Positions 18,539-43,789 are shown, counted from the stretch's first letter. The stretch: 45,428 nucleotides of DNA from a virus (IMGVR_UViG_3300006467_000563:132337-177764), one strand, 5' to 3'. Translations and numbers: made by a program. The notes: generated by a model not told the origin, from the letters alone.

Positions 18539-18540
18539 TA

Positions 18541-19654: not shown

Positions 19655-19660
19655 ACACAT

Positions 19661-21267: not shown

Positions 21268-21274
21268 GTGACAT

Positions 21275-23762: not shown

Positions 23763-23770
23763 GAGCTATA

Positions 23771-27369: not shown

Positions 27370-27544
27370 GTTAAAAGAAGCAGCAGCACAGTTGCGAAAA
27401 ATAGAAGCATACATTAATAAACACGGTGTAAATATGCATCCAGTAACCAAAGTTTTTGGTGATGTACTAGACTCTATAGAAGAGCTGGAAAAAGAAAATG
27501 CCGTATTAAGAAATCAACTTGAACTACTTGGAGGGGATGAATAA
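27362..27544 (+). CDS. Small coiled-coil protein
   Basis: Coupled ORF. Confidence 0.5.
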   Translation: MNKLKEAAAQLRKIEAYINKHGVNMHPVTKVFGDVLDSIEELEKENAVLRNQLELLGGDE

Positions 27545-28173: not shown

Positions 28174-28248
28174 GATACAGTATGACATATCAATGGCGAG
28201 AGATAGTAGAAATTTCTGGAAAAAAGTATCTTTTAAACGTAGATTGGG

Positions 28249-28277
28249 TTGACGGGGAAGTCAAAAAGTATTATGAT
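28249..28277 (+). promoter_or_regulatory. Sigma-70-type promoter
   Basis: TTGACG-17-TATGAT in an intergenic gap. Confidence 0.65.
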
Positions 28278-28324
28278 GTAGCTATACAGAACGAGTTATC
28301 TCAATATGAGAAGAAAGAAAAATA

Positions 28325-28645
28325 ATGTGGACCAAGGAAGTATGTGATTCAATTACCGGCCTACTCAGTTTAAAAGAAAACTGGAATAGTTATGGTTCCT
28401 ATAAAGCAGATGTAAAATCTGTTAATATGGCCATAGACTACGTACATATGCTCGGTGCGATGAATGTATTTCCTAAACCTTCTGTGTCGTTGACTCCGGG
28501 GGGACATGTTTTTCTCTGCTGGAATTGGGAAGCAGACGCCAAGGAACTTTCGATAGAGTTCTGTCCTGAAAAGGGGGCATTAGTTAACTTTTGGGATAGC
28601 AATGGTTACGTTGACTATGACTGTATTATAAAAATGGAGATATAA
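28325..28645 (+). CDS. Hypothetical protein (LxxNWxSYG family)
   Basis: LKENWNSYG...PSVSLTPGGHVFLCW. Confidence 0.6.
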   Translation: MWTKEVCDSITGLLSLKENWNSYGSYKADVKSVNMAIDYVHMLGAMNVFPKPSVSLTPGGHVFLCWNWEADAKELSIEFCPEKGALVNFWDSNGYVDYDCIIKMEI

Positions 28646-28950
28646 TGACTTTTATTGACTTAATCGATATGTTAAGAGAAGGTAAAAAGTTAACCCATCG
28701 CGGACTTTCTTGCGAGTTTATTTATCTTGATGGTGACTGTCTTATAACAGATGAAGATGAAAGAATGATGTGGGATGAAGTTGCAGACATTTATGAGAAT
28801 TATTCAGAGCCTTATGAAGAATGGGACCCGGATAACAGTTCTATCATTAATGATTTAATCACGAATGCCAATTTAGCAATTCAGGAGCTAAATGATTTGT
28901 TAGAATCATGTGGAGTAGATAAGACATATGTACTTGAGGAAAAAATCTAA
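28645..28950 (+). CDS. DUF2829/Tad2-like paralog with helical tail
   Basis: MTFIDLIDMLREGKKLTHRG...FIYL. Confidence 0.5.
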   Translation: MTFIDLIDMLREGKKLTHRGLSCEFIYLDGDCLITDEDERMMWDEVADIYENYSEPYEEWDPDNSSIINDLITNANLAIQELNDLLESCGVDKTYVLEEKI

Positions 28951-29204
28951 TGGATAGTGTAGAAAAGTTGGCACATGGGTATGCCGTAGATTATAAGCCT
29001 TGGGACACGGACTTACCTCCTAGTGATTATATGGCGTATGGTTTTACTAGAGGATTCAAGCATGTGATACATAATATTACTTTTCTAGATGTTCCAGACG
29101 AAGAATATTCAGAAATAGAGTTGTGTGATACTGTTTTTCATAATGGTATAAAATATATTGTCATTGCAAAAGATTATGGAAAGGTGATTGCTGTTCGTGT
29201 TTGA
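28950..29204 (+). CDS. Hypothetical protein
   Basis: Coupled ORF. Confidence 0.5.
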   Translation: MDSVEKLAHGYAVDYKPWDTDLPPSDYMAYGFTRGFKHVIHNITFLDVPDEEYSEIELCDTVFHNGIKYIVIAKDYGKVIAVRV

Positions 29205-29487
29205 AGAAAATGGTGAAGTAATCGTTCTAATGGGACTACAAGTTGCATTCGGTAGATATGCTGGAAAAGCTACATTGGCTAATAATTATGGACGAGTAGT
29301 ATTTGAAGATGGAGTATCTGGATTGTTTTTATTCTCAGATATGTACCCCATCACACAGATTGATAAAGTAAAACGGGTTATAGATGAAAAAATGAGTGCC
29401 ATTATAGAAACCCATAATGATGCAATAAAATTATCTACACACACCTACCAAGTCTTGCAGAAAAAAATGGAGGCCATGAATGGATGA
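29188..29487 (+). CDS. Hypothetical protein (beta N-terminus plus helix)
   Basis: Coupled ORF; start uncertain. Confidence 0.5.
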   Translation: MLFVFEENGEVIVLMGLQVAFGRYAGKATLANNYGRVVFEDGVSGLFLFSDMYPITQIDKVKRVIDEKMSAIIETHNDAIKLSTHTYQVLQKKMEAMNG

Positions 29488-29668
29488 CAACAAGTGGTTC
29501 TGCATAATGGGAATATTCTTTTTTATATGTATGTCTATTAGTATGTCTTTTGAATCTTACTATAAATCAATAGAATTACCTAAACTAAAACAGCTACAAA
29601 TAGAATGTATCGAAGAAGGATACGGTACAATGGAAAACGGAAGGTTCAAGTTGATTAAAAATGATTGA
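29480..29668 (+). CDS. Small membrane protein
   Basis: N-terminal TM segment. Confidence 0.5.
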   Translation: MDDNKWFCIMGIFFFICMSISMSFESYYKSIELPKLKQLQIECIEEGYGTMENGRFKLIKND

Positions 29669-29680
29669 CCTATTATTAAT

Positions 29681-29956
29681 TTGCGTTTTACTTATTGTTT
29701 GGTTTTGTTTCTTGGAGGACAACAATTGAATTACGTACTTGGAGAGTATGAGGCTGTTCCTTTAGATTGGGCACCTGCAGAAAAACATTGGTCAGTATTT
29801 CGAGATTATGATATCGTAGGGGAAATTTCTGTGATTAGGGGTGAGATTTTTGGATATCCCGGTCATTCGTATCCTCTTGACTATAATGAAGTAGAAGAGC
29901 CGCAACAAGTAGAAGAATGTTTGAAGGCTATCATTAATTATTTGGAGAACAGATGA
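29681..29956 (+). CDS. Hypothetical protein
   Basis: ORF coupled to next gene; start probably later, behind GGAGG. Confidence 0.45.
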   Translation: MRFTYCLVLFLGGQQLNYVLGEYEAVPLDWAPAEKHWSVFRDYDIVGEISVIRGEIFGYPGHSYPLDYNEVEEPQQVEECLKAIINYLENR

Positions 29957-30297
29957 ATATTGCAGACTTTTTGTGGGAACTCACTTCTGGAAGTAAAGCT
30001 AGAATTAATAGCTGGGAAAAGGGTGACTGGATTTCTCTACGTGGAGATGGTTCCTGTTTCTTAGATTCAGATGGGAATGAATATGGGCTAGAAATCTTAG
30101 GAGATGCTGGCTTGGAAGAGTGGGAAGTGTTTGATGAGGAACGGCAAGAGCGGATTAATGCTATTATCCATGAGATTAATGAATTAGAAGTTGACGCTTC
30201 TAATATAGAAAATAATATCGACGTTCTAATGTCGGACCTAGAAGATATCAATTATCAAATTGATGACTTAAAAGAAGAATTAGATGAGCTTGAGTAA
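29953..30297 (+). CDS. DUF2829/Tad2-like paralog with very acidic coiled-coil tail
   Basis: LTSGSKARINSW...WISL...LEEWEVF then D/E-rich heptads. Confidence 0.55.
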   Translation: MNIADFLWELTSGSKARINSWEKGDWISLRGDGSCFLDSDGNEYGLEILGDAGLEEWEVFDEERQERINAIIHEINELEVDASNIENNIDVLMSDLEDINYQIDDLKEELDELE

Positions 30298-30695
30298 TGG
30301 ACTATGAATCGTTAACTATGTCACAAAAGTTAATACAAGGCATGAAAGAGCTGACGCTGTCTCTGGAAAATAATTATAGAGGTAACATGAAATTTGAAAT
30401 TGGTGAAAAAGTAATCATTCTTGAAGATTGTGACGTATATCTCGGTGAGATTCTGTCTGATACAATGCAACATGTTGGTTTTGGCGATGAATTAACTCTA
30501 TCGGTAGCTGTTGAGTTCGGTGAATTCGATATTGATGTCCGTGATATCTACAAAATGGAAGACGTTGATGTTGTAATTGATAGACTGAAATTGCGTATGT
30601 CAGAAGCGGAAGAGACATATATTATCACAAAGTCACTTGCTTTACAATCGATTAAAACTTTGATGGATATTAAAAAAGGAGATGCAGATACATGA
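30297..30695 (+). CDS. Hypothetical protein (SH3-like start MKFEIGEKV)
   Basis: Possible internal start at 30387 behind GAGG. Confidence 0.55.
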   Translation: MDYESLTMSQKLIQGMKELTLSLENNYRGNMKFEIGEKVIILEDCDVYLGEILSDTMQHVGFGDELTLSVAVEFGEFDIDVRDIYKMEDVDVVIDRLKLRMSEAEETYIITKSLALQSIKTLMDIKKGDADT

Positions 30696-30880
30696 AAAAA
30701 CAAGAAATCATAGACAAACTGAAGGAAGGGTACAGTGTGAATTTTAAAGACGACCCGGAATGTTTTTATACTATGTGTGATGACAGATTGTATTTCATGA
30801 TGGCGGGCGAGGGTAGCTTGCGTATTAGCTTTGCTGCAATCGGGGACTGGAATGACGAAGAAATTGATTTTTGGAAGTAA
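30692..30880 (+). CDS. Distant DUF2829/Tad2-like paralog
   Basis: EIIDKLKEGYSV...FY; weak match. Confidence 0.4.
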   Translation: MKKQEIIDKLKEGYSVNFKDDPECFYTMCDDRLYFMMAGEGSLRISFAAIGDWNDEEIDFWK

Positions 30881-30882
30881 CA

Positions 30883-31071
30883 ATGTTGGCTAAAGTATCA
30901 GACAATATATGGGTCATGGCTGATGAAGTTGTTTATGTAGCACCAGTCACTGATTCGGAATTAGTAGAGATTAAATGTAAAGGTTCACGCGGTCACTTCA
31001 TTAAGACAAGATGGCCTATTCTTAAAGTTGTCGAGTCTATTAATGAGGCAAGAGAAAAATGCAAGCAGTAG
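30883..31071 (+). CDS. Hypothetical protein
   Basis: Coupled ORF. Confidence 0.5.
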   Translation: MLAKVSDNIWVMADEVVYVAPVTDSELVEIKCKGSRGHFIKTRWPILKVVESINEAREKCKQ

Positions 31072-31280
31072 CTGGGATAGAGCCATCTAGAAAAAATATT
31101 GTATATAAACAATGTTGTAATCCTATGTCTGGTTATTTAACACCACCATCTACTTATGCTCATATTATAGGTGACAGAGAAAACCTTTATATTGTAGAAC
31201 ATATACAATGGGTGGGAATGTATGGTTTTGTTGTTGACCATATTCAACCAATTATTTGTGGAGTAGGATATGAACAATGA
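31059..31280 (+). CDS. Hypothetical protein
   Basis: Coupled ORF. Confidence 0.45.
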   Translation: MQAVAGIEPSRKNIVYKQCCNPMSGYLTPPSTYAHIIGDRENLYIVEHIQWVGMYGFVVDHIQPIICGVGYEQ

Positions 31281-31536
31281 TTTTAGGGGAACAGCCTTAA
31301 TTATCAATGATGATTTAAGCGTCATTTGGGGCGAAGTAACAAACTGTATCTTTTTTCAAACAATACAAAACTATAGGTTCATTGTGAATATAGATGGTAA
31401 ACCAACATGTGTTCGACCATCACGTGTATTCGATAATCCAAAAGAGGCAAACGAATACATTGAAATGTTATATAAAAAGAGAACTGACGAATACTTCTTT
31501 TCACTGCATAAAATAAGGAATTGGGCAAATGGGTAA
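31270..31536 (+). CDS. Hypothetical protein (beta N-terminus plus helix)
   Basis: Coupled ORF. Confidence 0.5.
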   Translation: MNNDFRGTALIINDDLSVIWGEVTNCIFFQTIQNYRFIVNIDGKPTCVRPSRVFDNPKEANEYIEMLYKKRTDEYFFSLHKIRNWANG

Positions 31537-32047
31537 AGAGTGGGTGGATTTTTTAGACCAGTTAAACATCTTAAGAAATATGGAGCTTAGACTGGAACGT
31601 ATTGAGAAAACACTTGCAGATATCGTAAGAGGAATGTCACCCCCAGAGATGGCTGTGGAAGCTGATAGTGAATATACACACCAAGAAGTAGACTTTGATG
31701 ATGGAAGAAAATGGATTATCGAAAAAGGCGATAGACTGCTAGGGTATGTTACAATCACTGGTACTGTATGTACTATTTGCTTAGGCAGCTCATTGTTGTG
31801 GCAGAGGGCAGTCCCTCATAGGCAGAGTGACGTCGAGGCTGCAGAAAAAGCAATCCAAGAGTTGATAGAGTACGTAGAGCGTGAGAAAATGCGAGCGATA
31901 GAGGATAGCAAAAGAAAAGAGGGCAACGTATACGGCTACTGCCCCATCTGCGGAGCACCGGGGATTATGCGTGAGAGACGCCTTGGTGGGAATGATTATT
32001 GTAAAAACGGACACGAGTATCCATCTAAGGATGCTGTATTTTTCTAG
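31529..32047 (+). CDS. Hypothetical protein with C-terminal zinc ribbon
   Basis: CPICG...YCKNGH. Confidence 0.6.
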   Translation: MGKEWVDFLDQLNILRNMELRLERIEKTLADIVRGMSPPEMAVEADSEYTHQEVDFDDGRKWIIEKGDRLLGYVTITGTVCTICLGSSLLWQRAVPHRQSDVEAAEKAIQELIEYVEREKMRAIEDSKRKEGNVYGYCPICGAPGIMRERRLGGNDYCKNGHEYPSKDAVFF

Positions 32048-32055
32048 GAGATAAA

Positions 32056-32427
32056 ATGGATAAAGTAACTGACAGGGAATTTTGGAAGAGTGTTATTGCA
32101 CAACATGACGATGAAGACTGGCAGGAGTCTGGTTATATAGCATGCTATCATAAAAATGTGGCTTATTTAACAAACTACTATCATTGTTCATGCTATGGCA
32201 CATTCGAGGCTTTGTGTGGTGGTGGGATTAGTGACCGTTTCTCTGAGGGTATTCCTTCATTCATATGGAGTGGTACTTTAAAAGAGTTGGTAGATATGGC
32301 AAAAAGGGGTGCTGACCCACATATGCCATCAAGGGTGGCTAAGGAAGCTGACTGTGATTATAAACATTTGATGGAAGTATATAAACAAATCTTAGAATGG
32401 TATGAGGATGAATATGAAACTGTATGA
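32056..32427 (+). CDS. Hypothetical protein (HCSCYG motif)
   Basis: AGGAG SD; metal-binding-like HCSC. Confidence 0.6.
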   Translation: MDKVTDREFWKSVIAQHDDEDWQESGYIACYHKNVAYLTNYYHCSCYGTFEALCGGGISDRFSEGIPSFIWSGTLKELVDMAKRGADPHMPSRVAKEADCDYKHLMEVYKQILEWYEDEYETV

Positions 32428-32770
32428 AGCAATCAAGTTACTTGAGGAAGGAAAGCGTGTCAGACATCAAGATTGGCCTAGTAATAGCTTTTTAGTATTA
32501 AGGGGAAATATTCTAGACCAAGACGGTGAATTAGATGCAATCGTTTGTGATTCTGTTAACGATTTAGACGGATGGGAGCTTCTCAAGGAAGATGGTTGGT
32601 ATAAATGTGATGGGAAAGATTATATCAAATTTGATGACTGGTATCTCTGGTGTGATGGTAAATGGATGCCGTGTAATGAGCCTAAACACGCTAACCTTGA
32701 ACGTGCTGGCAATTTTGAGCCAAAGAGATATACTATTCAAACTAAACTAGTAGACGATATTCCATTCTAG
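32414..32770 (+). CDS. DUF2829/Tad2-like paralog with aromatic C-terminal module
   Basis: MKLYEAIKLLEEGKRVRHQDW...DLDGWEL then DGWYKCDG..IKFDDWYLW.DGKWMP...GNFEPKRY; ends DDIPF. Confidence 0.7.
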   Translation: MKLYEAIKLLEEGKRVRHQDWPSNSFLVLRGNILDQDGELDAIVCDSVNDLDGWELLKEDGWYKCDGKDYIKFDDWYLWCDGKWMPCNEPKHANLERAGNFEPKRYTIQTKLVDDIPF

Positions 32771-33651: not shown

Positions 33652-33816
33652 GTGACCAACATTTCACAATTAGGCAGGTGCGAACCATGTTACTATAAAA
33701 GTTTCCCGGCTAATCTGATGTTTCGGGATGGATACTGGGCACAAGTAGACTATTACACAGAAATAGGAATTCATCTAGGAGTTAGAATAGATTACGGATA
33801 TGGATGGATTTATTAG
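33652..33816 (+). CDS. Small hypothetical protein (54 aa, GTG start)
   Basis: Not in ORF track; AGGAG SD; last gene before terminator. Confidence 0.45.
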   Translation: MTNISQLGRCEPCYYKSFPANLMFRDGYWAQVDYYTEIGIHLGVRIDYGYGWIY

Positions 33817-33844
33817 TTATGCTGTGACATTTTGTTTCGAGTTG

Positions 33845-33876
33845 GGGCACCTAGATTTTTTTGGTGTCCTTTTTTC
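33845..33876 (+). terminator. Intrinsic terminator closing the dense plus-strand block
   Basis: GGGCACC-loop-GGTGTCC then T run. Confidence 0.65.
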
Positions 33877-34106
33877 TTTGCCGACTTAAGTGCGGGTAGT
33901 TAGCAAATGACAATTAAGTTTGAAGTGCCGAGGCGTGAGATAAGGCCCCCCGGTTTTTTGACCAACCTGAACAGGTTCCCACCTGAACGTAAAACCACCC
34001 CCACCGAACTTGTGAACAAATGAGCACATCGGCAGGGGATTTGTAAACCTTGTTTAGTAAGTGCTGCTTAATAAATGTTGTTTAAATAACGTTGTTAAAT
34101 ATTGGG

Positions 34107-34222
34107 GTGGACAAACTACTGAATTCGCGTCTGTGCTCGATTCTCCGCAAATCCGATACAATACCCATGAAACTATCGGAATGCATTAGGGGCGATTCTA
34201 TGAGATTCTAGCCCCATAGCAG
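34107..34222 (+). repeat. ~110 bp dispersed non-coding element, copy A
   Basis: Shares TCGCGT, TCCGATACAATRCCCRTGAA and ATTCTATG..ATTCT.AGCCCCATA blocks with 37028-37145. Confidence 0.8.
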
Positions 34223-34369
34223 AGGTACACTAAACTATTTTGGAATATTTTTTGATTTTATACCGTTTTAGGCTTTTTTAGACTTTTTTTATCCCGATAG
34301 GTTGCTAATATCTTATCAGAGGTTAATCAATGCGGTTAACACGAAACTATCTTTTAAGGAGTTGAGACA

Positions 34370-34597
34370 ATGAGAAAAGCACATGCTAACTTCCACGCCC
34401 CAGAGCCAGTTCAAACCAAACGGACACCAACGGTTGAAGAGTTTGACAAAATGTTATCAGATGCCTTTCAGTTTGCTTTCATGCCTCAAGATGAGGACGA
34501 GTTAATCGAGATGCTCACAGGGAGCGAATCACGCGTAGGATTGAATCGGCAAATTGAAATCATGGAAGAGCACTTCGGTGCTGTTGAGAACTGGTAA
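34370..34597 (+). CDS. Hypothetical early protein
   Basis: TAAGGAG SD. Confidence 0.6.
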   Translation: MRKAHANFHAPEPVQTKRTPTVEEFDKMLSDAFQFAFMPQDEDELIEMLTGSESRVGLNRQIEIMEEHFGAVENW

Positions 34598-34603
34598 GCT
34601 AAT

Positions 34604-34636
34604 GGGGGCCATGACTGGCTCCCCTCTTTACACTTT
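34604..34636 (+). repeat. Inter-gene hairpin element, copy 1
   Basis: GGGGGCCA-TGAC-TGGCTCCCC TCTTTACACTTT. Confidence 0.85.
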
Positions 34637-34650
34637 GAAAGAATAAAACA

Positions 34651-34800
34651 ATGAAACAACACAGTATTGAATGGTGGGTACAATTCATCAGATTCCATTA
34701 TATTCCAGCGGTATACTCACCCCAACGTAATTGCATTAGAGCAGTTGAGCGGTATACTACGCGTGATGATAGAGCAGCAGTTAACTGTAACGTCGATTAA
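34651..34800 (+). CDS. Small hypothetical protein (49 aa)
   Basis: Not in ORF track; MKQHSIEWWVQFIRF..., directly behind hairpin element. Confidence 0.45.
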   Translation: MKQHSIEWWVQFIRFHYIPAVYSPQRNCIRAVERYTTRDDRAAVNCNVD

Positions 34801-34848
34801 CCATTAGACGGAAAAGCCATTGATTCATGGCTCGGATATTAACCACTA

Positions 34849-34881
34849 AGGGGGCCATGACTGGCCCCCTCTTTACACTTT
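34849..34881 (+). repeat. Inter-gene hairpin element, copy 2
   Basis: AGGGGGCCA-TGAC-TGGCCCCCT CTTTACACTTT. Confidence 0.85.
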
Positions 34882-34893
34882 GGAAAGAATGCA

Positions 34894-34986
34894 ATGGATT
34901 GCAAAAAATATCTTCTTATCGTATGGTCCCTGATGGCCATTGCCACAATCTCAACAATCGTTTTTTTTGAAATGGTGTTATCATGA
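34894..34986 (+). CDS. 30 aa single-TM peptide
   Basis: MDCKKYLLIVWSLMAIATISTIVFFEMVLS; ATGA overlap with next gene. Confidence 0.45.
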   Translation: MDCKKYLLIVWSLMAIATISTIVFFEMVLS

Positions 34987-35237
34987 CAGTAAAGGAAGAA
35001 ATCAGAGTTACAAGGCCCGGAAAGTACCCACCAACAACGCCAAGAGAGGGGAGACAAGGCCACTATTTCTATGGCAATAACCTAGTTGAGTGTATTATGA
35101 AAGCTCAGCGTAAGTTCGGTGATGAACTAGTGGACGTCGAATACAATGGGTGGTATATCGGTTCAATCACACAGGCCCAGCCAGAACACAAATTTCCAAA
35201 ACAATCGGTTAATGATTTTGTGGGCTGGTGCCCATAA
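34983..35237 (+). CDS. Hypothetical early protein
   Basis: Ends just before hairpin copy 3. Confidence 0.55.
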   Translation: MTVKEEIRVTRPGKYPPTTPREGRQGHYFYGNNLVECIMKAQRKFGDELVDVEYNGWYIGSITQAQPEHKFPKQSVNDFVGWCP

Positions 35238-35243
35238 CTAACA

Positions 35244-35276
35244 AGGGGGCCAGTCATGGCCCCCTCTTTACACTTT
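35244..35276 (+). repeat. Inter-gene hairpin element, copy 3 (loop inverted)
   Basis: AGGGGGCCA-GTCA-TGGCCCCCT CTTTACACTTT. Confidence 0.85.
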
Positions 35277-35292
35277 AAAAGGAATTACCACA

Positions 35293-35811
35293 ATGAAGAA
35301 ACTAGTCGATATGGTCCCAGTTCGCGACTACTGCCAAAATATGGTTTTATCAGCAGATGAAGCTAGAACACTACGACAAAACGTGCGTAACATGTATTGC
35401 GTATGCAATCTGCAGGAATTAGAATCTGCTCTTATCCATCATAAGGAAAACCCAACAATGCGGGGAAATGAGGAAACGATTGCATTCATTCAAGAGTTAA
35501 TTGATGAGTGTAATCTGGATTTATCAGGGCGGATTATCCGGTATGTTGATTATACCGTATTGTCTGAGCTGCTGAGCCACACAATGCGAATGCAACGTAT
35601 GTTATTCGGAGATTCCTTCATGACTGAACAGGAATTGAGAGGGGCCTTATCAGACCCTTACGTATACTGTGAAGATTATTTACAGTCGGCACTGGAAAAC
35701 ATGTTTCTGCATCACGTACGCGTTGGTGGTCGTGAACGTCAAACCAAATTCTCTGATATCCATATTGACCACACTAAACAGATAGTAACAATCTGGCTTG
35801 CTATCAAGTAA
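35293..35811 (+). CDS. Hypothetical early protein
   Basis: AAGGA SD, 172 aa. Confidence 0.6.
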   Translation: MKKLVDMVPVRDYCQNMVLSADEARTLRQNVRNMYCVCNLQELESALIHHKENPTMRGNEETIAFIQELIDECNLDLSGRIIRYVDYTVLSELLSHTMRMQRMLFGDSFMTEQELRGALSDPYVYCEDYLQSALENMFLHHVRVGGRERQTKFSDIHIDHTKQIVTIWLAIK

Positions 35812-35828
35812 TCAACAACAATAACCAA

Positions 35829-35860
35829 AGGGGGGCCATATGGTCCCCCTATTTGCATTT
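35829..35860 (+). repeat. Inter-gene hairpin element, copy 4 (diverged)
   Basis: AGGGGGGCCA-TA-TGGTCCCCCT ATTTGCATTT. Confidence 0.7.
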
Positions 35861-35869
35861 GAGGATATC

Positions 35870-35995
35870 ATGAAAACATTATCGTATTTTGTAGCTCTGC
35901 TCTTATTCTCCCTATGCTCAGTTCTATTCTGGCATGCTCTTATATCGATTCTAGGGACATCTCTAAACGTTGGGGTTGATGGTCGGCCATTATGA
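35870..35995 (+). CDS. 41 aa membrane peptide
   Basis: Not in ORF track; GAGGA SD; MKTLSYFVALLLFSLCSVLFWHALISILG... Confidence 0.5.
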   Translation: MKTLSYFVALLLFSLCSVLFWHALISILGTSLNVGVDGRPL

Positions 35996-36153
35996 GGGAT
36001 TTAATCATACACGTTGCTGCTGTGCTCGCTATCGCTCTTATATCGGTTCTTACAATCCGTTGTGCGGTTTCATTGTGGAAACATGACGATGTAAAAAGGT
36101 TGATTGAAGAGGGTAACAAGAACGGCGGCACTACTGCACATCTAAACATGTAA
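35992..36153 (+). CDS. 53 aa membrane peptide
   Basis: Not in ORF track; ATGA overlap; MRDLIIHVAAVLAIALISVLTIRC... Confidence 0.5.
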   Translation: MRDLIIHVAAVLAIALISVLTIRCAVSLWKHDDVKRLIEEGNKNGGTTAHLNM

Positions 36154-36370
36154 TATACGCCTGTTCAGGTAGTATACATCTGTCTACTAGGGTGACAAAT
36201 AGTCACCCTTTTTTTACGTATACACATATCCACTACGCGACCGCCGCCAGACCGCCGCCCGCCGCCGCGATAACTGCACACTTGTCAACTGCCCGCCCGT
36301 ACATGCATACAGGCCAGACCGTTAGCCATTTGTTCAGTGCTTGTCAGTCCACGCTGTTCGTCCGTCCAAG

Positions 36371-36456
36371 AAACGGGTTTGTAACGGGTTGACAAACCCG
36401 TTTGCCCAGAATGCACATAGTTAGCCGTTTTCCTATTTTACCTAGCTTGCCGGGGG
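36371..36456 (+). repeat. Array leader copy 1 (hairpin, GCACATAGTTAGC, G run)
   Basis: AAACGGGTTTGT...ACAAACCCGTTT hairpin; homologous to 39151-39235 and 41237-41318. Confidence 0.75.
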
Positions 36457-36975
36457 AATTACTTAGGAAAGTTTAGAAAGTAATTCGGTTCCCGAACCGC
36501 AGGAGTTTGTTAATAAACCTTATTAATTAATTCGATACCGCGACCGCAGGACATTTCTTAAGAAACTTTATTAAATAATCCGGCGTGGGAATTTCTTAGG
36601 AAACTTTATTAACTAACTATGTAATTAGTAAAGTTAATTAAATAATTCGGGAGCGGCAACGGAAAAGTTATTTAGGAAAGTTAATTAAGTAAATCACCTG
36701 TTCACCAAGTGTACGCATGGGCAATTTGTTAGGAAAGTTTACAAACTAATGAATTACTTAAGAAAGTTAATTAAGTATTGAATTACTTAAGAAACCTTAG
36801 AAACTAATAATTACTTAGGAAACTTTATAAACTAAGAAATTTCTTAATAAACATTACTAAATAATTGAACATTGTACATGTATAGTGTACACAAATTTTT
36901 TTATTTCTGTTTTCGTGTACAAACCGTTATATGTATACTACCGGCCAATTACTTAATAAACGTTATTATATAATG
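36457..36975 (+). repeat. Array 1: 12 copies of degenerate 29 bp quasi-palindrome AATTACTTAGGAAA-S-TTTATTAAnTAATT
   Basis: Unit starts 36457, 36504, 36552, 36590, 36619, 36666, 36723, 36752, 36781, 36809, 36838, 36947; GC-rich spacers or abutting. Confidence 0.9.
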
Positions 36976-37027
36976 CAGCAAAAAATGTGCCAAACTCACG
37001 TGAGCAAATTTCATGCCAAAAAAACTA

Positions 37028-37145
37028 GTGTACAAACACCTGTAAATCGCGTGTATGGGCAAACTATTTGTTTTCCGATACAATGCCCGTGAATTCATTA
37101 TAACTCAATACAGGGCATTCTATGCATTCTCAGCCCCATAACGGG
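37028..37145 (+). repeat. ~110 bp dispersed non-coding element, copy B
   Basis: Colinear with 34107-34222. Confidence 0.8.
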
Positions 37146-37246
37146 TGACCAGTGCACAAGTGTGAACAAAATTCCTTTTATATTTATATAGTATATAACT
37201 ATTTCCGGGAATCTTGCTAAAAATAAAAAAACGATTAAAGTATCTA

Positions 37247-37274
37247 TTGCAATCTGCCGGGGATGTGATACAAT
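37247..37274 (+). promoter_or_regulatory. Sigma-70-type promoter with A-rich UP element
   Basis: TTGCAA-16-TACAAT with TGn; homologous to the promoter at 39504. Confidence 0.65.
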
Positions 37275-37344
37275 GCAATGCATGATGAGGTTAACGCAAA
37301 CAAGTTAACTAAACCTGCAAGCGGTTATAACCCGCATGCATGAC

Positions 37345-37356
37345 GTTCTTTGACAA
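37345..37356 (+). promoter_or_regulatory. boxA-like antitermination element
   Basis: GTTCTTTGACAA in a structured 5' leader. Confidence 0.5.
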
Positions 37357-37414
37357 TTTGGTAAAATCTTGAGCCGTAGCGTCCGTTCACCTACTCTTTT
37401 TTGGAGGATGTGCT

Positions 37415-37732
37415 ATGCTGCACACAAGTATAGTTGGCATGAAAAATGGTCTGATTGATATGCTGGACGCGTGTTCAGAAGACAATCTGGCCGAAACATG
37501 TGAACAAGTAATCAGTGCTATACGTCTGACGTCTGGCATGTGGGTTGAGTGTTCATACGGATACAAAGCCGTAGAATTGATGGACAAAATCAACCTAATG
37601 TGTACAGAAGTCATCGAATCTGGTGTACACTATATGAAACGTGACCGTCTGAAAGCCGTGCGGAGTGCATCTGTACAGCTAAGTCAGTTCATGTTCCGTG
37701 CACACCAAAAAAACATGTACGCATGTGTATAG
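37415..37732 (+). CDS. Hypothetical early protein
   Basis: GGAGGA SD. Confidence 0.6.
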   Translation: MLHTSIVGMKNGLIDMLDACSEDNLAETCEQVISAIRLTSGMWVECSYGYKAVELMDKINLMCTEVIESGVHYMKRDRLKAVRSASVQLSQFMFRAHQKNMYACV

Positions 37733-37803
37733 TCTGACCAGTTCGCCAGTCTGGAGAAAACTGGCAATCTTCAAAATACTTTTAAGTTTTTTCTAAAATG
37801 GGG

Positions 37804-37832
37804 TTGACATACAATAGTCAATAGACTATAAT
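37804..37832 (+). promoter_or_regulatory. Perfect consensus sigma-70 promoter
   Basis: TTGACA-17-TATAAT. Confidence 0.9.
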
Positions 37833-37881
37833 CTCCTTAGTCAAGTCACTTTTTTAAACATGCTTTTTAGGAGCAAACACT

Positions 37882-38757
37882 ATGAACGCTACTCAAGAAA
37901 TCCAGAACAAAGTCCGCGAAGCCTTCAATTTCTCTGTTGTCAAGGCCCCCCTGTTTGGACCAGACAACACTCGTACAGGTCTGTCAGGTCTGTTCCGCGA
38001 CGATGATTTTTCACTGGTGGGAAATTCATCTGTGAAGGACCGATACACGCCGCACACTACGGAAGACGTGGTTGCAATCGTCGATGCCGCAAGTGAGGCA
38101 TTTGACGGGGACATTGATATCCAGTGCAATTTCAAGCATGGACATTACGTCACCATCGCACCAAGTCTGGATTATCGTAAACAGATTTACGGTACTGACA
38201 TCGTATTCCCCCGGCTGCTGGTTAACGCATCCTACGATGGACGTGCATTTCGGGCAACTATGGGCATGTATCGTGATATGTGCCGAAACATGATGATGAT
38301 GCGTCAAGTGAACCAGACAAGTCAGGCAATCCGCCATACGTCCGGCTTGCGTGACAAAATGGATGAACTTATCCAGACCTTTTCGGTTCTCCGCGAGTCA
38401 TGGGACAATATCGGGGACGCAATCGACCACATGAACGAACGTAAGGTCGATGTACGCCAGTTCATTATGGGGCTGTACGGTACTCCGAATGAAAATTCCA
38501 GCAAGTCGGTTACCATGCATGAAAAACGCATGGAAGCCATTCTGACGCGGCTCCGCGATGAATCCCGCAAGTGCGGTCTTGATAACCCGCTGGTAACCGG
38601 CGAAACTAACGGATGGCTGATGTACAATGCCGTTCAGGGATACGCTCAACATGATTCCATCCGGCGTAAGGATACGACTGATTTTGAGAAAATCCTGTCG
38701 AGCCATGACGATAAATTCGTGAAGGAGGCAGAACGGCTGCTGCTGGCCGCTGTTTAA
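37882..38757 (+). CDS. DUF932-family phage/plasmid protein
   Basis: VKDRYTPH, LLVNASYDG, YRDMCRNM, IRHT, WLMYNAVQGY match the DUF932/TIGR03299 pattern. Confidence 0.8.
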   Translation: MNATQEIQNKVREAFNFSVVKAPLFGPDNTRTGLSGLFRDDDFSLVGNSSVKDRYTPHTTEDVVAIVDAASEAFDGDIDIQCNFKHGHYVTIAPSLDYRKQIYGTDIVFPRLLVNASYDGRAFRATMGMYRDMCRNMMMMRQVNQTSQAIRHTSGLRDKMDELIQTFSVLRESWDNIGDAIDHMNERKVDVRQFIMGLYGTPNENSSKSVTMHEKRMEAILTRLRDESRKCGLDNPLVTGETNGWLMYNAVQGYAQHDSIRRKDTTDFEKILSSHDDKFVKEAERLLLAAV

Positions 38758-38763
38758 CCCTCT

Positions 38764-38793
38764 GGGGGGAGAAATCCCCCCTCTTTTCTTTTC
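38764..38793 (+). terminator. Intrinsic terminator
   Basis: GGGGGA-GAAA-TCCCCC then T-rich tract. Confidence 0.7.
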
Positions 38794-38819
38794 TTCATGT
38801 TTCTATTGAGGTTTTACCG

Positions 38820-38975
38820 ATGAACCGATACACAAAATACGCTCGCTCGTTTGGCTGGTCTGGCATGCCAGTTTACGTCGTCAATGGTCTGGTCTATTTC
38901 AATTACCGCATGCGGGGTGAGGGAATCGACTGGTTTGAGTTTATGGATGATGTACGTGGGGGCCGAACTAACTAA
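38820..38975 (+). CDS. Small hypothetical protein (51 aa)
   Basis: Not in ORF track; GAGGT SD; MNRYTKYARSFGWSGMPVYVV... Confidence 0.55.
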   Translation: MNRYTKYARSFGWSGMPVYVVNGLVYFNYRMRGEGIDWFEFMDDVRGGRTN

Positions 38976-38993
38976 GTAATCAAGATTGTATTT

Positions 38994-39027
38994 ACCGTCT
39001 ATCCCTTTTGGGGTAGGCGGTTTTTTT
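38994..39027 (+). terminator. Intrinsic terminator
   Basis: ACCGTCTATCCC-TTTT-GGGGTAGGCGGT then T run. Confidence 0.85.
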
Positions 39028-39150
39028 ACGTACATAGAAAAGCGATAGACGGGCCTATACGCGTCCGCTTTGAATTGCTGTCCCTTTTATCATGCCAGAC
39101 CGCAAACGCTCGCTACGCTTTAATGACGGGCCTATCTGGTGACCTTTGAA

Positions 39151-39235
39151 ACATGGCTTGTCACGGCTTGACAAGCCGTGTAGCCTGTATGCACATAGTT
39201 AGCTAGTTAGTCGTTTTTGTGTTCGCCGCAGGGGG
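39151..39235 (+). repeat. Array leader copy 2
   Basis: ACATGGCTTGTCA...TGACAAGCCGTGT hairpin, ATGCACATAGTTAGC, GCCGCAGGGGG. Confidence 0.75.
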
Positions 39236-39457
39236 AATTTGTTAGGAAAGTTTATTAAATAAGTACTTAATTAAGAAAGTTTAGAAAGTATCTCCAGAGC
39301 TGTTGCTGCAAGTTTACTTAGGAAAGTTTACTAATTAATTCGAGTCCGACTGTGGAATTATTTAGGAAAGTTTATTAACTATCTAATTACTTAGGAAGAT
39401 TTATTAAGTAATTTCGTTCACCAAACGGAATTTGTTAGTAAGGTTTCTTAACTAAGT
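39236..39457 (+). repeat. Array 2: 6 copies of the 29 bp quasi-palindrome
   Basis: Unit starts 39236, 39265, 39312, 39356, 39385, 39429. Confidence 0.9.
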
Positions 39458-39503
39458 GTACATTCCCATTATTGAGAAATATAGAAAAACGATTAAAGTA
39501 GAC

Positions 39504-39531
39504 TTGTAATCCTGTCGGGGCGTGCTATAAT
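39504..39531 (+). promoter_or_regulatory. Sigma-70-type promoter
   Basis: TTGTAA-16-TATAAT with TGn; upstream AAAAACGATTAAAGTA shared with the 37247 promoter. Confidence 0.7.
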
Positions 39532-39569
39532 GCATATATCACTGGAACATAACACTAAAGGATAAAATC

Positions 39570-39731
39570 ATGGATAAACCATTACTTGAGGTAAAGGGCT
39601 TTTTTGGCCAGTGGCTGGTCTGCTGTTCAGGTGCTATCCTGTTCATGGAAGTGTACGAACGTGAAGGGTATACGCTCAGCCATGATAGCTCTCTCTCTAC
39701 TATGAAAGATTTACTTTTAGCAGGATTCTAA
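39570..39731 (+). CDS. Small hypothetical protein (53 aa)
   Basis: Not in ORF track; AAGGA SD; MDKPLLEVKGFFGQWLV... Confidence 0.55.
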   Translation: MDKPLLEVKGFFGQWLVCCSGAILFMEVYEREGYTLSHDSSLSTMKDLLLAGF

Positions 39732-39733
39732 AC

Positions 39734-39997
39734 ATGGAAATTGTTGGTGTACTAGTACACGACTGGGTTGACGGGGAACGTGTTCAGAATGATTCCTTGA
39801 CTAAAGTATGGGGAATCGGTTCAAGTCGTGATGTAAGTATCGTCGAAGCGGAGCAATATTTTGTGTCGCTCCTGAACAAGCACGACCTTGATAGTGCTAT
39901 TGTAGAGTATTATCTTGAAAAGGGTTTTTACTACTGTCCAAAAGCGGAGCGGAGATACTTTTTTATCAATTGTAAGCTGGAAGAGGTTACTTCTTAA
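39734..39997 (+). CDS. Hypothetical early protein
   Basis: Coupled ORF. Confidence 0.55.
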   Translation: MEIVGVLVHDWVDGERVQNDSLTKVWGIGSSRDVSIVEAEQYFVSLLNKHDLDSAIVEYYLEKGFYYCPKAERRYFFINCKLEEVTS

Positions 39998-40026
39998 AAA
40001 TGCAGAAAAAAAGATAGGGGGCGGGT

Positions 40027-40055
40027 TTGACTCTCCCCTATCACTCTGCTATACT
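40027..40055 (+). promoter_or_regulatory. Sigma-70-type promoter
   Basis: TTGACT-17-TATACT with TGn. Confidence 0.75.
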
Positions 40056-40093
40056 TCAATCATACAATTAACCATCTAATAAGGGGTAAGTAA

Positions 40094-40288
40094 ATGGCTC
40101 GTGTTACACTGAAAACAGTATTGTATCACGCTGAGCAGTGGGGTGTTCAGGTGCAGGAAATTGGCCATCGTCGCTGGGAAGTGTCCCATCCTAATGTACA
40201 GGGCATGACTGGCGAAGTGGACAATGTACAGGACCTGTGGAGCGAAGTATACGACTTTGCAAGAATGGCCGGAAAAGTGGAGGAATAG
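40094..40288 (+). CDS. Hypothetical early protein
   Basis: AAGGGG SD, own promoter. Confidence 0.6.
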   Translation: MARVTLKTVLYHAEQWGVQVQEIGHRRWEVSHPNVQGMTGEVDNVQDLWSEVYDFARMAGKVEE

Positions 40289-40290
40289 GG

Positions 40291-40319
40291 TTGACGCCCT
40301 ATTTTTTCCCTGCTATACT
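40291..40319 (+). promoter_or_regulatory. Sigma-70-type promoter
   Basis: TTGACG-17-TATACT; near copy of the 40027 promoter. Confidence 0.75.
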
Positions 40320-40358
40320 TCAAGCATAACTGAAACATTTCTCATAAGGGACAAAGTA

Positions 40359-40700
40359 ATGGCGTTTGAGTATACAGATACTTCTATCAAGATTGCAATT
40401 GACCGTGATTCGTCTGTTAAGACTCATCAGATGTTTATCCATCACAGCGGCGGTTCTCGCGAAAAGGCATACCTGTTCTGTGTTGAATTGTTTCATCCAG
40501 AAACTCTGTGCACACATGCTCCTATCTATGTTCTGGCTGAGGACACCGAAGGAGCTATCCATCAGGCAACCTGCGTAAATGGTGAATTTGATAGCAAAAT
40601 GTATGATGGTGGTGGTGAATTCAGCACGACTGTATTAAAGGAATCCTCAGTAAAGCGTCTCCATCTGGCCATTCGCGGCTGGGGTGGTCAACAGTTCTAA
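40359..40700 (+). CDS. Hypothetical early protein
   Basis: Start moved to MAFEYT behind AAGGGA and the promoter. Confidence 0.6.
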   Translation: MAFEYTDTSIKIAIDRDSSVKTHQMFIHHSGGSREKAYLFCVELFHPETLCTHAPIYVLAEDTEGAIHQATCVNGEFDSKMYDGGGEFSTTVLKESSVKRLHLAIRGWGGQQF

Positions 40701-40803
40701 CATAACTCTATGTCCAAAGGGTACTAGGTAAGGTTTAAAGAGGAAGAACGCCATCTTCCCGCCCGCTTTCTTCATTTAGTAATTCTTGATTTAGGAGAGA
40801 GAC

Positions 40804-41154
40804 ATGTTATCACCAGAAAGAGCAGCACTACTGCGAAAAAATAAACCAAACATTGCAGCATATCAAAAACGGGCAATCGGTGATTCTGCTGATATGTTCG
40901 ACTGTAAATACAAATACGAAGATGGTTCTGTCTGTGCTGCGTCGGCGTGCTTCACAGATGCGGAGAGAGAACTGGTTTTCCTGATTGACAATGATGCACC
41001 AATAGACGAACATCAACGCACACTGAAGTTATCAGACGATGAATTGACCACACTAGGAAATCTGCAAAGTGCTCATGACGCATATATGCAAAACGGATGC
41101 AACAAGAATTTCAATCACTTCGATGAACTAGTGAAGGATGTATTAGGCGAATAA
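40804..41154 (+). CDS. Phage early protein (CxY..DG..CA...LQxxHD family)
   Basis: CKYKYEDGSVCAASAC...LQSAHD; paralog of 43793..44122. Confidence 0.6.
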   Translation: MLSPERAALLRKNKPNIAAYQKRAIGDSADMFDCKYKYEDGSVCAASACFTDAERELVFLIDNDAPIDEHQRTLKLSDDELTTLGNLQSAHDAYMQNGCNKNFNHFDELVKDVLGE

Positions 41155-41172
41155 TACAAACAACAACAATCT

Positions 41173-41207
41173 ATCCTCTTGCCTGTAATGGGTAAGGGGA
41201 TTTTTTT
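41173..41207 (+). terminator. Intrinsic terminator
   Basis: ATCCTCTTGCC-loop-GGTAAGGGGAT then T run. Confidence 0.8.
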
Positions 41208-41236
41208 ACGCCTACTCTTTTTTCTCTTGCTGAATA

Positions 41237-41318
41237 GCCGTTGTCATGCGATAACCAACGGCATAGCGATTCCGCAGATAGTTAGCGAGTTAGCAGTATT
41301 CTATCTGGCGGCGGGGGG
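41237..41318 (+). repeat. Array leader copy 3
   Basis: GCCGTTG...CAACGGC hairpin, GCAGATAGTTAGCGAGTTAGC, GGCGGCGGGGGG. Confidence 0.7.
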
Positions 41319-41525
41319 ATTTTCTTAGGAAACTTTACTAACTAATTCGGTAGGCACAACGGCGAAATAATTAGGAAACCTTACTAACTAAATATGGACG
41401 ACGTAGGATTTATTTAGGAAACTTTAGAAAATAAATCGAGAGTGAGAAAGCAAAAATTGTTAGTAAACTTTATTAACTAATTTTGTGAACGCATGTATTT
41501 TTTTAGTAAACTTTCTTAAGTACTG
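41319..41525 (+). repeat. Array 3: 5 copies of the 29 bp quasi-palindrome
   Basis: Unit starts 41319, 41365, 41408, 41454, 41497; spacers 14-17 nt; orphan copy near 41885-41913. Confidence 0.9.
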
Positions 41526-42164
41526 TTCATTGATGCACTTATGGAAAATATATGTACACTGAACGTTAGCCACTAGTGAAAATCCCATCTTTTTATCGTT
41601 TCTATATGTTGCTTTTGTGGCGAAAGTATCAAAAATTGCTGTTGAGTGTATTCGGGGTATCCCTAGTATACAAAAAACATATAAACCGCCTATACATGTT
41701 GAAAAAACGAAATGTGCAGGTGTACGAAAAATGGATGATTTTTGCCTGAAATAGTGTCATGGGTTAACTATTTTCTGTGATTTGCCCCATTTTTTCCTGC
41801 TGAACATTTGAAAAGTGAACATTTTTTTACTCGTGAGGACCTGTCTATGGTGATTTTTTGATGAGTAGTGTACAATTTTTGGAGGATTTTTTAGTAAACT
41901 TTAGAAAATAACAAGCGTTTGGTGCATAAATAGTAGTGTTTCGGTAGTCAAGAGGTGTGGAAGACTGTATTTCAAAACTATACCCCCGTTCCCAAGCGTC
42001 AGCTTGTGTATAGTATTCTTTATAATTATATTATGTATAGTTCTTATATGTATAGGTGATAAATCTATGTATATAGTGCCCTATTTTCACTACTGTTCAG
42101 TGTATTATTAAATAATCAGGAAAGTATATAAATCGTAGGCTTAAATCGATATTTGTACACATAC

Positions 42165-42257
42165 GCTAGAAGGCTCTCAGAGGCGTTTTAATGCATTATT
42201 ATTTTCTACGGTATAATCTACGGACTAAGCAGAGAAACGCACACACAAGCGAAGCAG
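42165..42257 (-). repeat. ~110 bp dispersed element, copy C (inverted, diverged)
   Basis: Aligns to reverse complement of copy A: GCTAGAA..CTC..AGA..CG..TAATGCATT...GGTAT...CGGA...GC.GAGAA.CG..CACA...GCGAA..CAG. Confidence 0.6.
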
Positions 42258-42359
42258 GGAGCCAGAAACAATACAACAACGATAACGAGATAATTCTAGC
42301 TTATTTATTTATTAGCAGAGAAAAAAGGGCGAATAATTCACAATTCTTTCTGATTAGGC

Positions 42360-42388
42360 TTGACAATAGATTGTATGGTTGGTAAGCT
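42360..42388 (+). promoter_or_regulatory. Sigma-70-type promoter, probably leaderless transcript
   Basis: TTGACA-17-TAAGCT, ATG 6 nt downstream. Confidence 0.7.
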
Positions 42389-42394
42389 ACCATT

Positions 42395-42625
42395 ATGAAA
42401 ACACGAGACATCACAACAGAAGAGAGAACCGAGCTGGATACGGCTTGGAATAAATATCACAAGACTGTAGATGAACTGCACAAAAATCAGCCTAACGACT
42501 GGCCAAAAAAACTTGATGCCGCGTATGCTGAATATAAAGAAACCATGAATGCATTAAACATCATATCTACTCTTGCAGGTTACAGGGTAAAAATTGAATG
42601 TTCAGAAAAATCCTCTGCTGGCTAG
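42395..42625 (+). CDS. Hypothetical early protein
   Basis: Directly behind promoter. Confidence 0.55.
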   Translation: MKTRDITTEERTELDTAWNKYHKTVDELHKNQPNDWPKKLDAAYAEYKETMNALNIISTLAGYRVKIECSEKSSAG

Positions 42626-43618: not shown

Positions 43619-43789
43619 ATGATGCAAGAAGAGAAAAATAGACTCCTGAGATATGCATTGCTTGTAGGCCATGAAGGAAATTGGCTTGCTAATGGTGAGG
43701 ATTGTATTCCCGCATTAAATTCATTACAGTCTGACGGACTGATTGAGCGGGATGAAACAGGTAAAAAGTGGCGTCTAATCATAGGGTGA
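43619..43789 (+). CDS. Small winged-helix-like protein
   Basis: ALNSLQSDGLIERDETGKKWRL; AAGGA SD before MMQEEK. Confidence 0.45.
   Translation: MMQEEKNRLLRYALLVGHEGNWLANGEDCIPALNSLQSDGLIERDETGKKWRLIIG

Follow-up and report, generated by a model that had tools for sequence, protein, structure and literature searches.

Arrays of a 29-bp quasi-palindrome in the early region of an uncultured large tailed phage: putative binding sites within a repeated non-coding module

The sequence analysed here, called the window throughout, is a stretch of 45,428 nt that makes up the last 45.4 kb of a single 177,764-bp virus record (IMGVR_UViG_3300006467_000563, positions 132337–177764); coordinates refer to the window unless another sequence is named. 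The record, which is linear, lacks end repeats and has a CheckV completeness of 89%, starts inside an open reading frame (ORF), so its ends are arbitrary. It comes from a large tailed phage with a GC content of 38%, encoding terminase, portal, ribonucleotide reductase, a split DNA polymerase, a DnaB-like helicase and NAMPT. Late genes run leftward in the window up to ∼17.5 kb; beyond this point come small early genes, which are oriented rightward and carry on into the start of the record. Three gaps in this early region contain arrays of a 29-bp quasi-palindrome (the unit), and sequence comparison supports reading them as putative tandem arrays of palindromic binding sites in a viral early region.

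A first reading made from the sequence alone (the sequence-only reading) had described about 24 polar quasi-palindromes in three arrays, and had proposed a scan of the phage with a position weight matrix (PWM). A PWM built from the copies and then iterated over the whole record bore out this description, returning exactly 24 sites of 21.5–41 bits, all confined to window positions 36457–41913 and 23 of them scoring better on the + strand. The next best site anywhere in the record reached 10.5 bits, and block-shuffled genomes held 0–1 sites of at least 12 bits. The 13-nt core of the unit, TTAGGAAASTTTA, occurred 29 times with up to two mismatches, against 4.4 ± 2.0 expected. The units are arranged as follows:

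36457–36866, + strand: array 1, 11 units starting at 36457, 36504, 36552, 36590, 36619, 36666, 36723, 36752, 36781, 36809 and 36838; PWM scores 22–41 bits; Tandem Repeats Finder (TRF) periods 29, 48 and 57
36947–36975, + strand: solitary unit after array 1; PWM score 28.2 bits
39236–39457, + strand: array 2, six units starting at 39236, 39265, 39312, 39356, 39385 and 39429; PWM scores 27–37 bits
41319–41525, + strand: array 3, five units starting at 41319, 41365, 41408, 41454 and 41497 (periods 46, 43, 46 and 43); PWM scores 30–40 bits
41885–41913, + strand: solitary unit of module 3 (see below), kept in four lineages

Start-to-start distances are either 28–29 nt, in which case the units abut, or 38–57 nt, mostly 43–48. 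The latter leave 12 spacers of 9–28 nt (mostly 14–19), most of which begin with CG and finish with GG. The spacers have a GC content of 61%, compared with 18% for the units, so that the spacing classes and GC-rich spacers reported initially were found again. P4-type TGTTCACC iterons were considered for the spacers and rejected, the genome containing four copies and the region one.

The composition of the unit was examined over 45 units from five phages. Mean column identity was 80%, and five of the 29 columns (T4, T7, A13, T17 and A26) were invariant; a further eight positions (T3, T8, A9, A12, A14, A22, A23 and T25) were conserved in at least 90% of the units. Most of these positions fall in mirror pairs (T4/A26, T7/A23, T8/A22, A13/T17 and A12/T18). 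The half-site, AATTWnTTA(G/A)(G/T)AAA, faces inward on both sides of a central G/C, and the dyad symmetry is present in the consensus only. The unit is asymmetric at positions 5, 10 and 11: G10 and G11 of the left half each occur in 28 of the 45 units, with A and T predominating at the mirror positions.

None of the arrays stands alone: each belongs to a larger, repeated, directional and non-coding module. In this module a strong intrinsic terminator is followed by a GC-rich leader containing a TAGTTAGC box, and the leader by the array; arrays 1 and 2 are then followed by a sigma70-type early promoter. All three arrays start 150–270 nt past the terminator, which is itself followed by TTTTTTTACG. 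The leaders have a GC content of 48–54% and contain a hairpin, one or two (T)AGTTAGC boxes and a run of G at their end. The genome holds seven copies of TAGTTAGC, four of them at module leaders (33897, 36418, 39196 and 41279). The parts of the modules, with terminators taken from a terminator scan, are:

36189–36216, + strand: intrinsic terminator of module 1, then TTTTTTTACG
36217–36456, + strand: leader of module 1, 54% GC, ending in GGGGG; hairpin at 36371–36405 with TTGACA in its loop, box ATGCACATAGTTAGC at 36411–36425
37226–37274, + strand: early promoter after module 1; UP-like AAAAAACGATTAAAGT, then TTGCAA-16-TACAAT
38994–39028, + strand: intrinsic terminator of module 2, then TTTTTTTACG
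39029–39235, + strand: leader of module 2, ending in GGGGG; hairpin at 39150–39185, box ATGCACATAGTTAGCTAGTTAG at 39189–39210; the leader has an orthologue in relative L125
39484–39531, + strand: early promoter after array 2; UP-like AAAAACGATTAAAGT, then TTGTAA-16-TATAAT with TG
41173–41208, + strand: intrinsic terminator of module 3, then TTTTTTTACG
41209–41318, + strand: leader of module 3, ending in GGGGGG; hairpin at 41232–41266, double box TAGTTAGCGAGTTAGC at 41279–41294
41526–41884, + strand: non-coding middle stretch of module 3, without a credible ORF; identity 84% with L125 and 60% with relative L463, some blocks being invariant
41914–42190, + strand: conserved non-coding downstream stretch of module 3, including four TATGTATAG repeats
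33897–34110, + strand: module 4, degenerate, with a TAGTTAGC box at 33897–33904 and a GC-rich leader

In module 2, 46 nt separate the last unit of the array from the –35 region of the promoter. Module 4 contains AT-rich, half-site-like repeats at about 34038–34105, where the PWM gave nothing that reached 6 bits. A repeated element of ∼110 bp (34100–34215 and 37040–37150) is located downstream of modules 4 and 1; in it a CCGATACAAT –10-like box precedes a sequence that can form a GC-clamped hairpin, and the element may represent a small RNA gene. Four of the five genome copies of ATGTATAG are located inside modules. In module 3 the four direct TATGTATAG copies (42007–42075) are spaced ∼15 bp apart. 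The ∼660 bp of non-coding sequence at 41526–42190 is 76–84% identical to L125 and ∼60% to L463, with invariant blocks such as CTATACAAAAAACATATAAACCGCCTATACATGT and GTAGTCAAGAGGTGTG, and is better conserved than most neighbouring ORFs; one block of its middle stretch is also found in relative L126. The ORFs listed at 41576–41749 and 42191–42385 are probably spurious. A further sigma70-like promoter on the – strand (36993 to 36965; TTGGCA-17-TATAAT, 11/12 matches) is directed leftward into array 1, its –10 region being supplied by the right end of the solitary unit at 36947. Its bases also match the sigma54 consensus TGGCAC-N5-TTGC (36992, – strand), the single match in the genome. A sigma54 promoter with an enhancer was rejected at this site: the match overlaps the strong sigma70 –35/–10 regions, no Sigma54_activat domain was found, and it is not conserved in the relatives.

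No close cultured phage was found. The best matches of the terminase large subunit (TerL) in INPHARED were 26–34% identical, and that database gave no match either by DNA or by the protein of the DUF932 gene, which lies between arrays 1 and 2. TerL relatives consist of hundreds of aquatic metagenome proteins of ∼50% identity and a few Logan contigs (124–175 kb) of 65–80%. Related loci were collected through DUF932 homologues and by walking along the Logan contig with an 80% identical TerL; the samples containing the relatives are SRR12358676, SRR12022142, SRR12358675, SRR20820739 and ERZ23496400. The motif and the leader box recur in four related uncultured phage lineages, including the following loci:

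L123–125: DUF932 91% identical (amino acids); arrays of 2, 5 and 3+1 units
L126/127: DUF932 56% identical (amino acids); arrays of 2 and 5–6 units, and a lone unit
L463: TerL 80% identical (amino acids); 5+1 units

The leaders of the relatives are recognizably alike, with the form (GGGATG)CAC...TAGTTAGCC-n3-GTTAGC, and the number of units per module varies from 0 to 12. An exact-pattern scan of all IMG/VR gave only single chance matches and no PWM clusters, and the same was true among the matches listed for JGI metagenome contigs and GTDB genomes.

The window, L125 and L463 share an orthologous module 3, and array 3 corresponds unit for unit to L463 14516–14728 (five units in each, with periods of 43–46 and 43–55, respectively). 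Between the window and L463, identity is 77% in the units, 45% in the spacers, 59% in the leader and 60–62% in the two non-coding flanks. The solitary unit at 41885 has orthologues in L125 (2400), L463 (15059) and L126 (9972) and is thus kept in all four lineages, including L126, where the array of that module is absent. Sequence comparison thus indicates that selection acts on the units, not on the spacers. The motif and its spacing, without whose conservation in relatives the initial description had held that neither a binding-site nor an RNA model could stand, are both conserved.

The distant phage L128–131 (DUF932 44% identical in amino acids) has no units. In L128, GCTAGCGAGTTAGCG directly abuts the UP-like element of an early promoter, and the UP-like element of the window promoters is also found ahead of the many early promoters of this phage. 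Since L128 has a GTTAGC box at a promoter lacking units, the arrays appear to have entered an upstream promoter region that already existed and to have expanded there; the comparison suggests that this region is older than the arrays.

Comparison of the relatives also bears on how the arrays recombine. L125 is collinear with the window from 37757 to 39262, that is, through the first unit of array 2, and then from 41406 to 42370, starting at the third unit of array 3. Arrays 2 and 3 are joined there within a unit, and L125 therefore lacks a five-gene cassette; the 2.1 kb that are absent comprise the rest of array 2, the five genes, leader 3 and two units. Between the modules, relatives differ in almost all of their genes and have in common only DUF932, a 51-aa gene, a 78-aa gene and a 110-aa family, whose order relative to the arrays differs in L463. 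Because the cassette difference joins in a unit and the inter-module genes differ, the modules behave like the promoter–stem-loop (PeSL) cassettes of T4-type phages. At the level of genome comparison, the dispersed arrays are shown to be recombination substrates at which cassettes of small early genes are added, removed and reshuffled. In L463, a relative with a single array, DUF932 is clustered with homologues of three window gene families (44243, 40804/43793 and 38820) at 17551–19653, these four families being dispersed among the arrays of the window.

Several other features of the early regions were recorded. Four tandem 18-bp GGAAYGTTAGCWAA repeats precede the array leader in two relatives, and L123 additionally contains 9-bp CTGGGTAAT repeats in a run and a stretch very rich in G (coordinates of these features taken together: L126 49–116; L123 187–231 and 8–79). 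A comparable GC-rich stretch seems to be present, in the opposite orientation, at window 36228–36270. A 40-bp non-coding ATTCGAAAACATTCGTCAAAAAATC-like element lies in an early intergenic gap of the window (19538–19578) and in L123 (3254–3296) and L126 (4317–4359); it is 84–86% identical in these two relatives, where it is found a few hundred bp upstream of the arrays. Small early genes at window 18130–32770 include Tad2-like paralogues (PF11195; four members detected with Pfam at E up to 0.01), also present in the relative with 80% TerL identity. The early region of L128 has tRNA-Asp and tRNA-Glu genes (1491–1565 and 15290–15363); the window lacks tRNA genes. The split DNA polymerase occupies two ORFs ∼2 kb apart (G000 82098–83801 and 85765–87435; L120 2098–3801 and 5765–7435), which match a single PHROG at profile positions 44–615 and 622–1062.

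The sequence-only reading had preferred binding sites for a dimeric protein to an RNA-processed repeat. The 13 hairpin pairs of the unit were formed in 69.9% of cases over the 45 units, compared with 71.3% when partners were shuffled, and their covariation score was below the shuffle mean, showing no compensatory change. The mean minimum free energy of a single-unit RNA was –1.3 kcal/mol for the + strand and –1.1 for the – strand, against –0.8 ± 1.1 for shuffled sequences. No promoter was predicted on the + strand of the leaders, no Rfam match was obtained, and a six-frame search of the 89%-complete record for Cas1 (PF01867) found nothing, in line with the earlier statement that cas genes are absent. 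The array 3 spacers have diverging orthologues in L125 and L463, indicating that they are inherited, not acquired. As compensatory pairing and Cas1 are absent, the RNA fold is weak, and the spacers are inherited and decay while the units are kept, the preference for binding sites is supported.

The same results bear on the CRISPR-like layout that had been noted. Like CRISPR arrays, the present ones intersperse repeats of ∼29 bp with unique spacers, keep a single orientation and are flanked on one side by a sequence resembling a leader. CRISPR repeats of 23–50 bp are, however, nearly identical, while mean column identity here is 80%; CRISPR spacers are uniform, ∼26–72 bp long and derived from foreign DNA, while those seen here are 0–28 nt and inherited; and CRISPR arrays are accompanied by cas genes and, in many types, preserve their repeat RNA structure through compensatory change, while here Cas1, an RNA hairpin and covariation were all lacking. 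With repeats this degenerate, unit RNAs unstable, no leader promoter and no Rfam match, the likeness is superficial.

The reading we favour, which we consider about evenly balanced between right and wrong, is that the units are DNA sites for a symmetric dimeric protein and that the arrays, lying upstream of early promoters, switch them. A sequence-specific protein would bind each unit as a symmetric dimer, the sites having been amplified into arrays inside a module of which the immediate-early (host-takeover) region contains three to four copies. Its terminator would keep transcription out of the array. Many dimers would assemble on the arrays into a nucleoprotein complex immediately upstream of some of the sigma70-type early promoters, and this complex would switch those promoters on or off, acting like an enhancer or silencer as the homologous regions (hrs) of baculoviruses do. 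Protein binding, the dimeric state and the adjacent promoter as the target are what we infer here; control of promoters seems likeliest because the arrays sit between the ancestral upstream box and a promoter, at 46 bp in module 2 and at ∼100–130 bp, from reading of the sequences, in four modules of relatives (two in L123 and two in L126).

A number of observations weigh against promoter switching by a dimer. The first gene past each array is not conserved, and the position of the arrays relative to promoters varies: module 3 is ∼700 bp from the next + strand promoter, and in L126 a promoter-like site precedes one of the units. Neither 29 bp nor 43–48 bp corresponds to an integral number of helical repeats. 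No recognizable double-strand DNA-binding family was found with Pfam among the ∼230 small ORFs of the record, and a six-frame search of the record for HTH_3, RHH_1, ParB_N, HU/IHF and Sigma54_activat was negative. Finally, a simple symmetric operator does not explain the polarity or the GTTAGC leader, and these, together with the two spacing classes, lie beyond the current reading.

The search for a cognate protein extended the earlier remark that none is evident in the window, since none was recognizable in the whole record either. The neighbouring ORFs had no Pfam or PHROG function, and the six-frame search of the record found no tyrosine or serine recombinase, CbiA/ParA or tubulin; a search for StbA/ParM carries no weight, its controls having been silent. 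Two ORFs may serve as weak leads: one of 56 aa (43619–43789), whose weak model (pLDDT 68) had winged-helix domains as its best, non-significant Foldseek rows, and one at 15818–16636, which has an N-terminal helix-turn-helix (HTH)-like region and PHROG matches. DUF932 (37882–38757) gave a confident AlphaFold model (pLDDT 91, pTM 0.84) with no match in the PDB (Foldseek E at least 0.04; VIA best Z 4.8). Nine of its residues are invariant in 36 homologues (H58, D62, H88, D106, R131, C134, N136, H152 and H257). DUF932 and the 78-aa gene (44243) were rejected as guides to relatives and as the specific partner because both are also found in unrelated phages of 25–50 kb that have no arrays. Informal comparison by eye with consensus sequences gave no convincing fit to host sites of the Fis, IHF or Lrp type. 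No structure model links a protein to the motif. The binder may be a phage protein of an unrecognized fold, it may be encoded in the missing ∼11% of the genome, or it may be a host protein.

A broader view, which by analogy would make the arrays a phage counterpart of the baculovirus hrs or of the family of repeats of Epstein–Barr virus (EBV), appears unlikely to us. The arrays would then be a platform of tunable copy number that loads many dimers of a protein of unrecognized fold, controls some of the immediate-early promoters or fires an origin, and also serves as a junction for the exchange of early-gene cassettes between phages. If true, cis element and binder would make up a new class of phage regulatory and recombination module.

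Among the other explanations, an origin of replication is decidedly unlikely yet stays a real alternative, because module 3 combines several families of repeats in 1 kb of conserved non-coding sequence that is shielded from transcription. The units would be iterons for a phage initiator, module 3 the origin, and modules 1 and 2 auxiliary or handcuffing arrays. Iterons, for example those of the lambda origin, have internal dyad symmetry and typically vary in copy number, and the tandem direct repeats with a conserved core that mark iteron-type origins are present here. Module 3, ∼1 kb of non-coding sequence better conserved than the surrounding ORFs, combines the units, the four TATGTATAG repeats and the GTTAGC boxes, and its terminator shields it from transcription. 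However, no initiator or replication gene was recognizable next to the modules, where the ORFs gave no family hits, the replication genes of the record being 60–107 kb away, and window positions 33800–42400 contain no DnaA boxes (TTWTNCACA) and no outstanding AT-rich block adjoining the arrays. Further, GC skew merely tracks the coding strand, and the L126 orthologue of module 3 has lost its array and kept the rest.

Some other protein-bound cis site for DNA handling, such as a centromere-like partition site, a site for packaging or terminus recognition, or a T5-like pause in DNA entry, is an improbable explanation. The tandem sites of F sopC have a period of ∼43 bp, which the period of part of the arrays recalls, and a process with a direction would be in keeping with the strict polarity. 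The record, 89% complete, is cut inside an ORF, so that the true genome ends are not fixed, and three conserved untranslated repeat regions among early genes match the picture of the T5 first-step-transfer (FST) region (bioRxiv 10.1101/866236). Against this, searches of the record for ParB_N, CbiA/ParA, tubulin and ribbon-helix-helix (RHH) proteins were negative, the terminase genes lie at a distance of 20 kb, T5-style pairs of DnaA boxes are absent, and the copy number per module ranges from 0 to 12 between relatives.

That the repeats persist simply by driving recombination, be it PeSL-like cassette exchange or slippage and unequal crossing-over, with no dedicated binding protein, seems more improbable again. 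It would fit the five-gene difference with its L125 joint in a unit, the almost complete replacement of inter-array genes while modules are kept, and the highly variable copy number; PeSL promoter–terminator cassettes do the same shuffling in T4-type phages (PMC2839356). For recombination, however, identity alone would do, yet mirror-paired bases are invariant across lineages in which the spacers fall to 45%; moreover, a solitary unit is conserved where its array is absent, and no site-specific recombinase was found.

The idea that transcribed arrays act as an RNA element, either as CRISPR-like or anti-CRISPR repeat mimics or as a sponge for a protein, is very improbable: the polarity parallels the direction of transcription, GGA occurs in 18 of the 45 units on the + strand and in one on the – strand, and 29 nt is within the CRISPR repeat range, but the arrays lie behind strong terminators and, as described above, covariation, stable hairpins, uniform acquired spacers, Cas1, Rfam matches and a leader promoter are all wanting. 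A sponge titrating CsrA or RsmA through GGA was rejected in particular, because the motif occurs in only half of the window units (12 of 24), at G10 and G11, which are among the least conserved core positions; it would also lie in the stem.

In large lytic phages, early regions are mostly regarded as successions of small ORFans. In this one the best-conserved features are non-coding, and selection has kept a specific 29-bp site in phages in which nearly all neighbouring genes have been replaced. Since no known DNA-binding family was detectable in the record, finding the binder would provide a new pair of DNA-binding protein and site. It would also help to explain how a widespread aquatic, uncultured lineage times or insulates its host-takeover genes, and it would supply a concrete mechanism for the shuffling of early-region cassettes.

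Among known systems, the stoperators of mycobacteriophages, asymmetric repressor sites that keep one orientation relative to transcription, share the orientation bias of the units; they are dispersed within transcribed regions, however, while the units are clustered in three gaps behind terminators, and no repressor-type HTH protein was found here. The lambda origin iterons, the 43-bp repeats of F sopC and P1 incA/incC are tandem repeats that each contain a dyad-symmetric site for a dimer. The arrays are similar to these iterons and centromeres in having tandem dyad-symmetric sites, a variable copy number and, in part, a period of ∼43 bp; they differ in that no gene for a Rep, ParA/ParB, ParR-like or TubZ protein was found nearby or in the record. 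In partition centromeres (sopC, parS, parC, tubC) the protein that binds the repeats is encoded together with a ParA, ParM or TubZ motor. The arrays are thus neither a CRISPR array nor a demonstrable ori or par site.

PeSL are units of ∼50–70 bp, made of a promoter and a stem-loop, at which recombination causes the gain and loss of cassettes in T4-type phages (PMC2839356; PMC4122927). Like them, the present modules repeat a promoter and a terminator between small early ORFans, and the indels of relatives are bounded by the motif; unlike them, they place 200–500 bp of leader and iterated 29-bp sites between terminator and promoter.

The EBV oriP family of repeats consists, like baculovirus hrs, of palindrome arrays bound by a dimeric viral protein. 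In baculoviruses (e.g. SpltNPV-II), several dispersed arrays of imperfect palindromes are bound by a viral dimer and serve as enhancers of early promoters, origins and recombination hot spots (PMC4535591). In both cases the arrays are dispersed and have 2–12 tandem units each, around an imperfect palindrome of 24–30 bp. The hrs belong to viruses of eukaryotes with no homology to this phage, whose arrays are known from sequence alone. The pre-early (FST) region of T5 contains three untranslated repeat regions, made of direct repeats and palindromes, whose function is open (bioRxiv 10.1101/866236). In both T5 and the phage studied here there are three non-coding repeat regions among small early genes, better conserved than the neighbouring ORFs. 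The two are unrelated in sequence: T5 has paired DnaA boxes and long inverted repeats, absent here, while in the window a single 29-bp quasi-palindrome is iterated in one orientation. In T5-type phages the repeat regions belong to a long terminal repeat, the first DNA to reach the cell; the present record has no end repeats. By analogy, the T5 FST repeat regions and the PeSL cassettes among phages and, in architecture, the baculovirus hrs are the closest counterparts of the arrays, and the parallel with T5 suggests that such elements may be general and overlooked.

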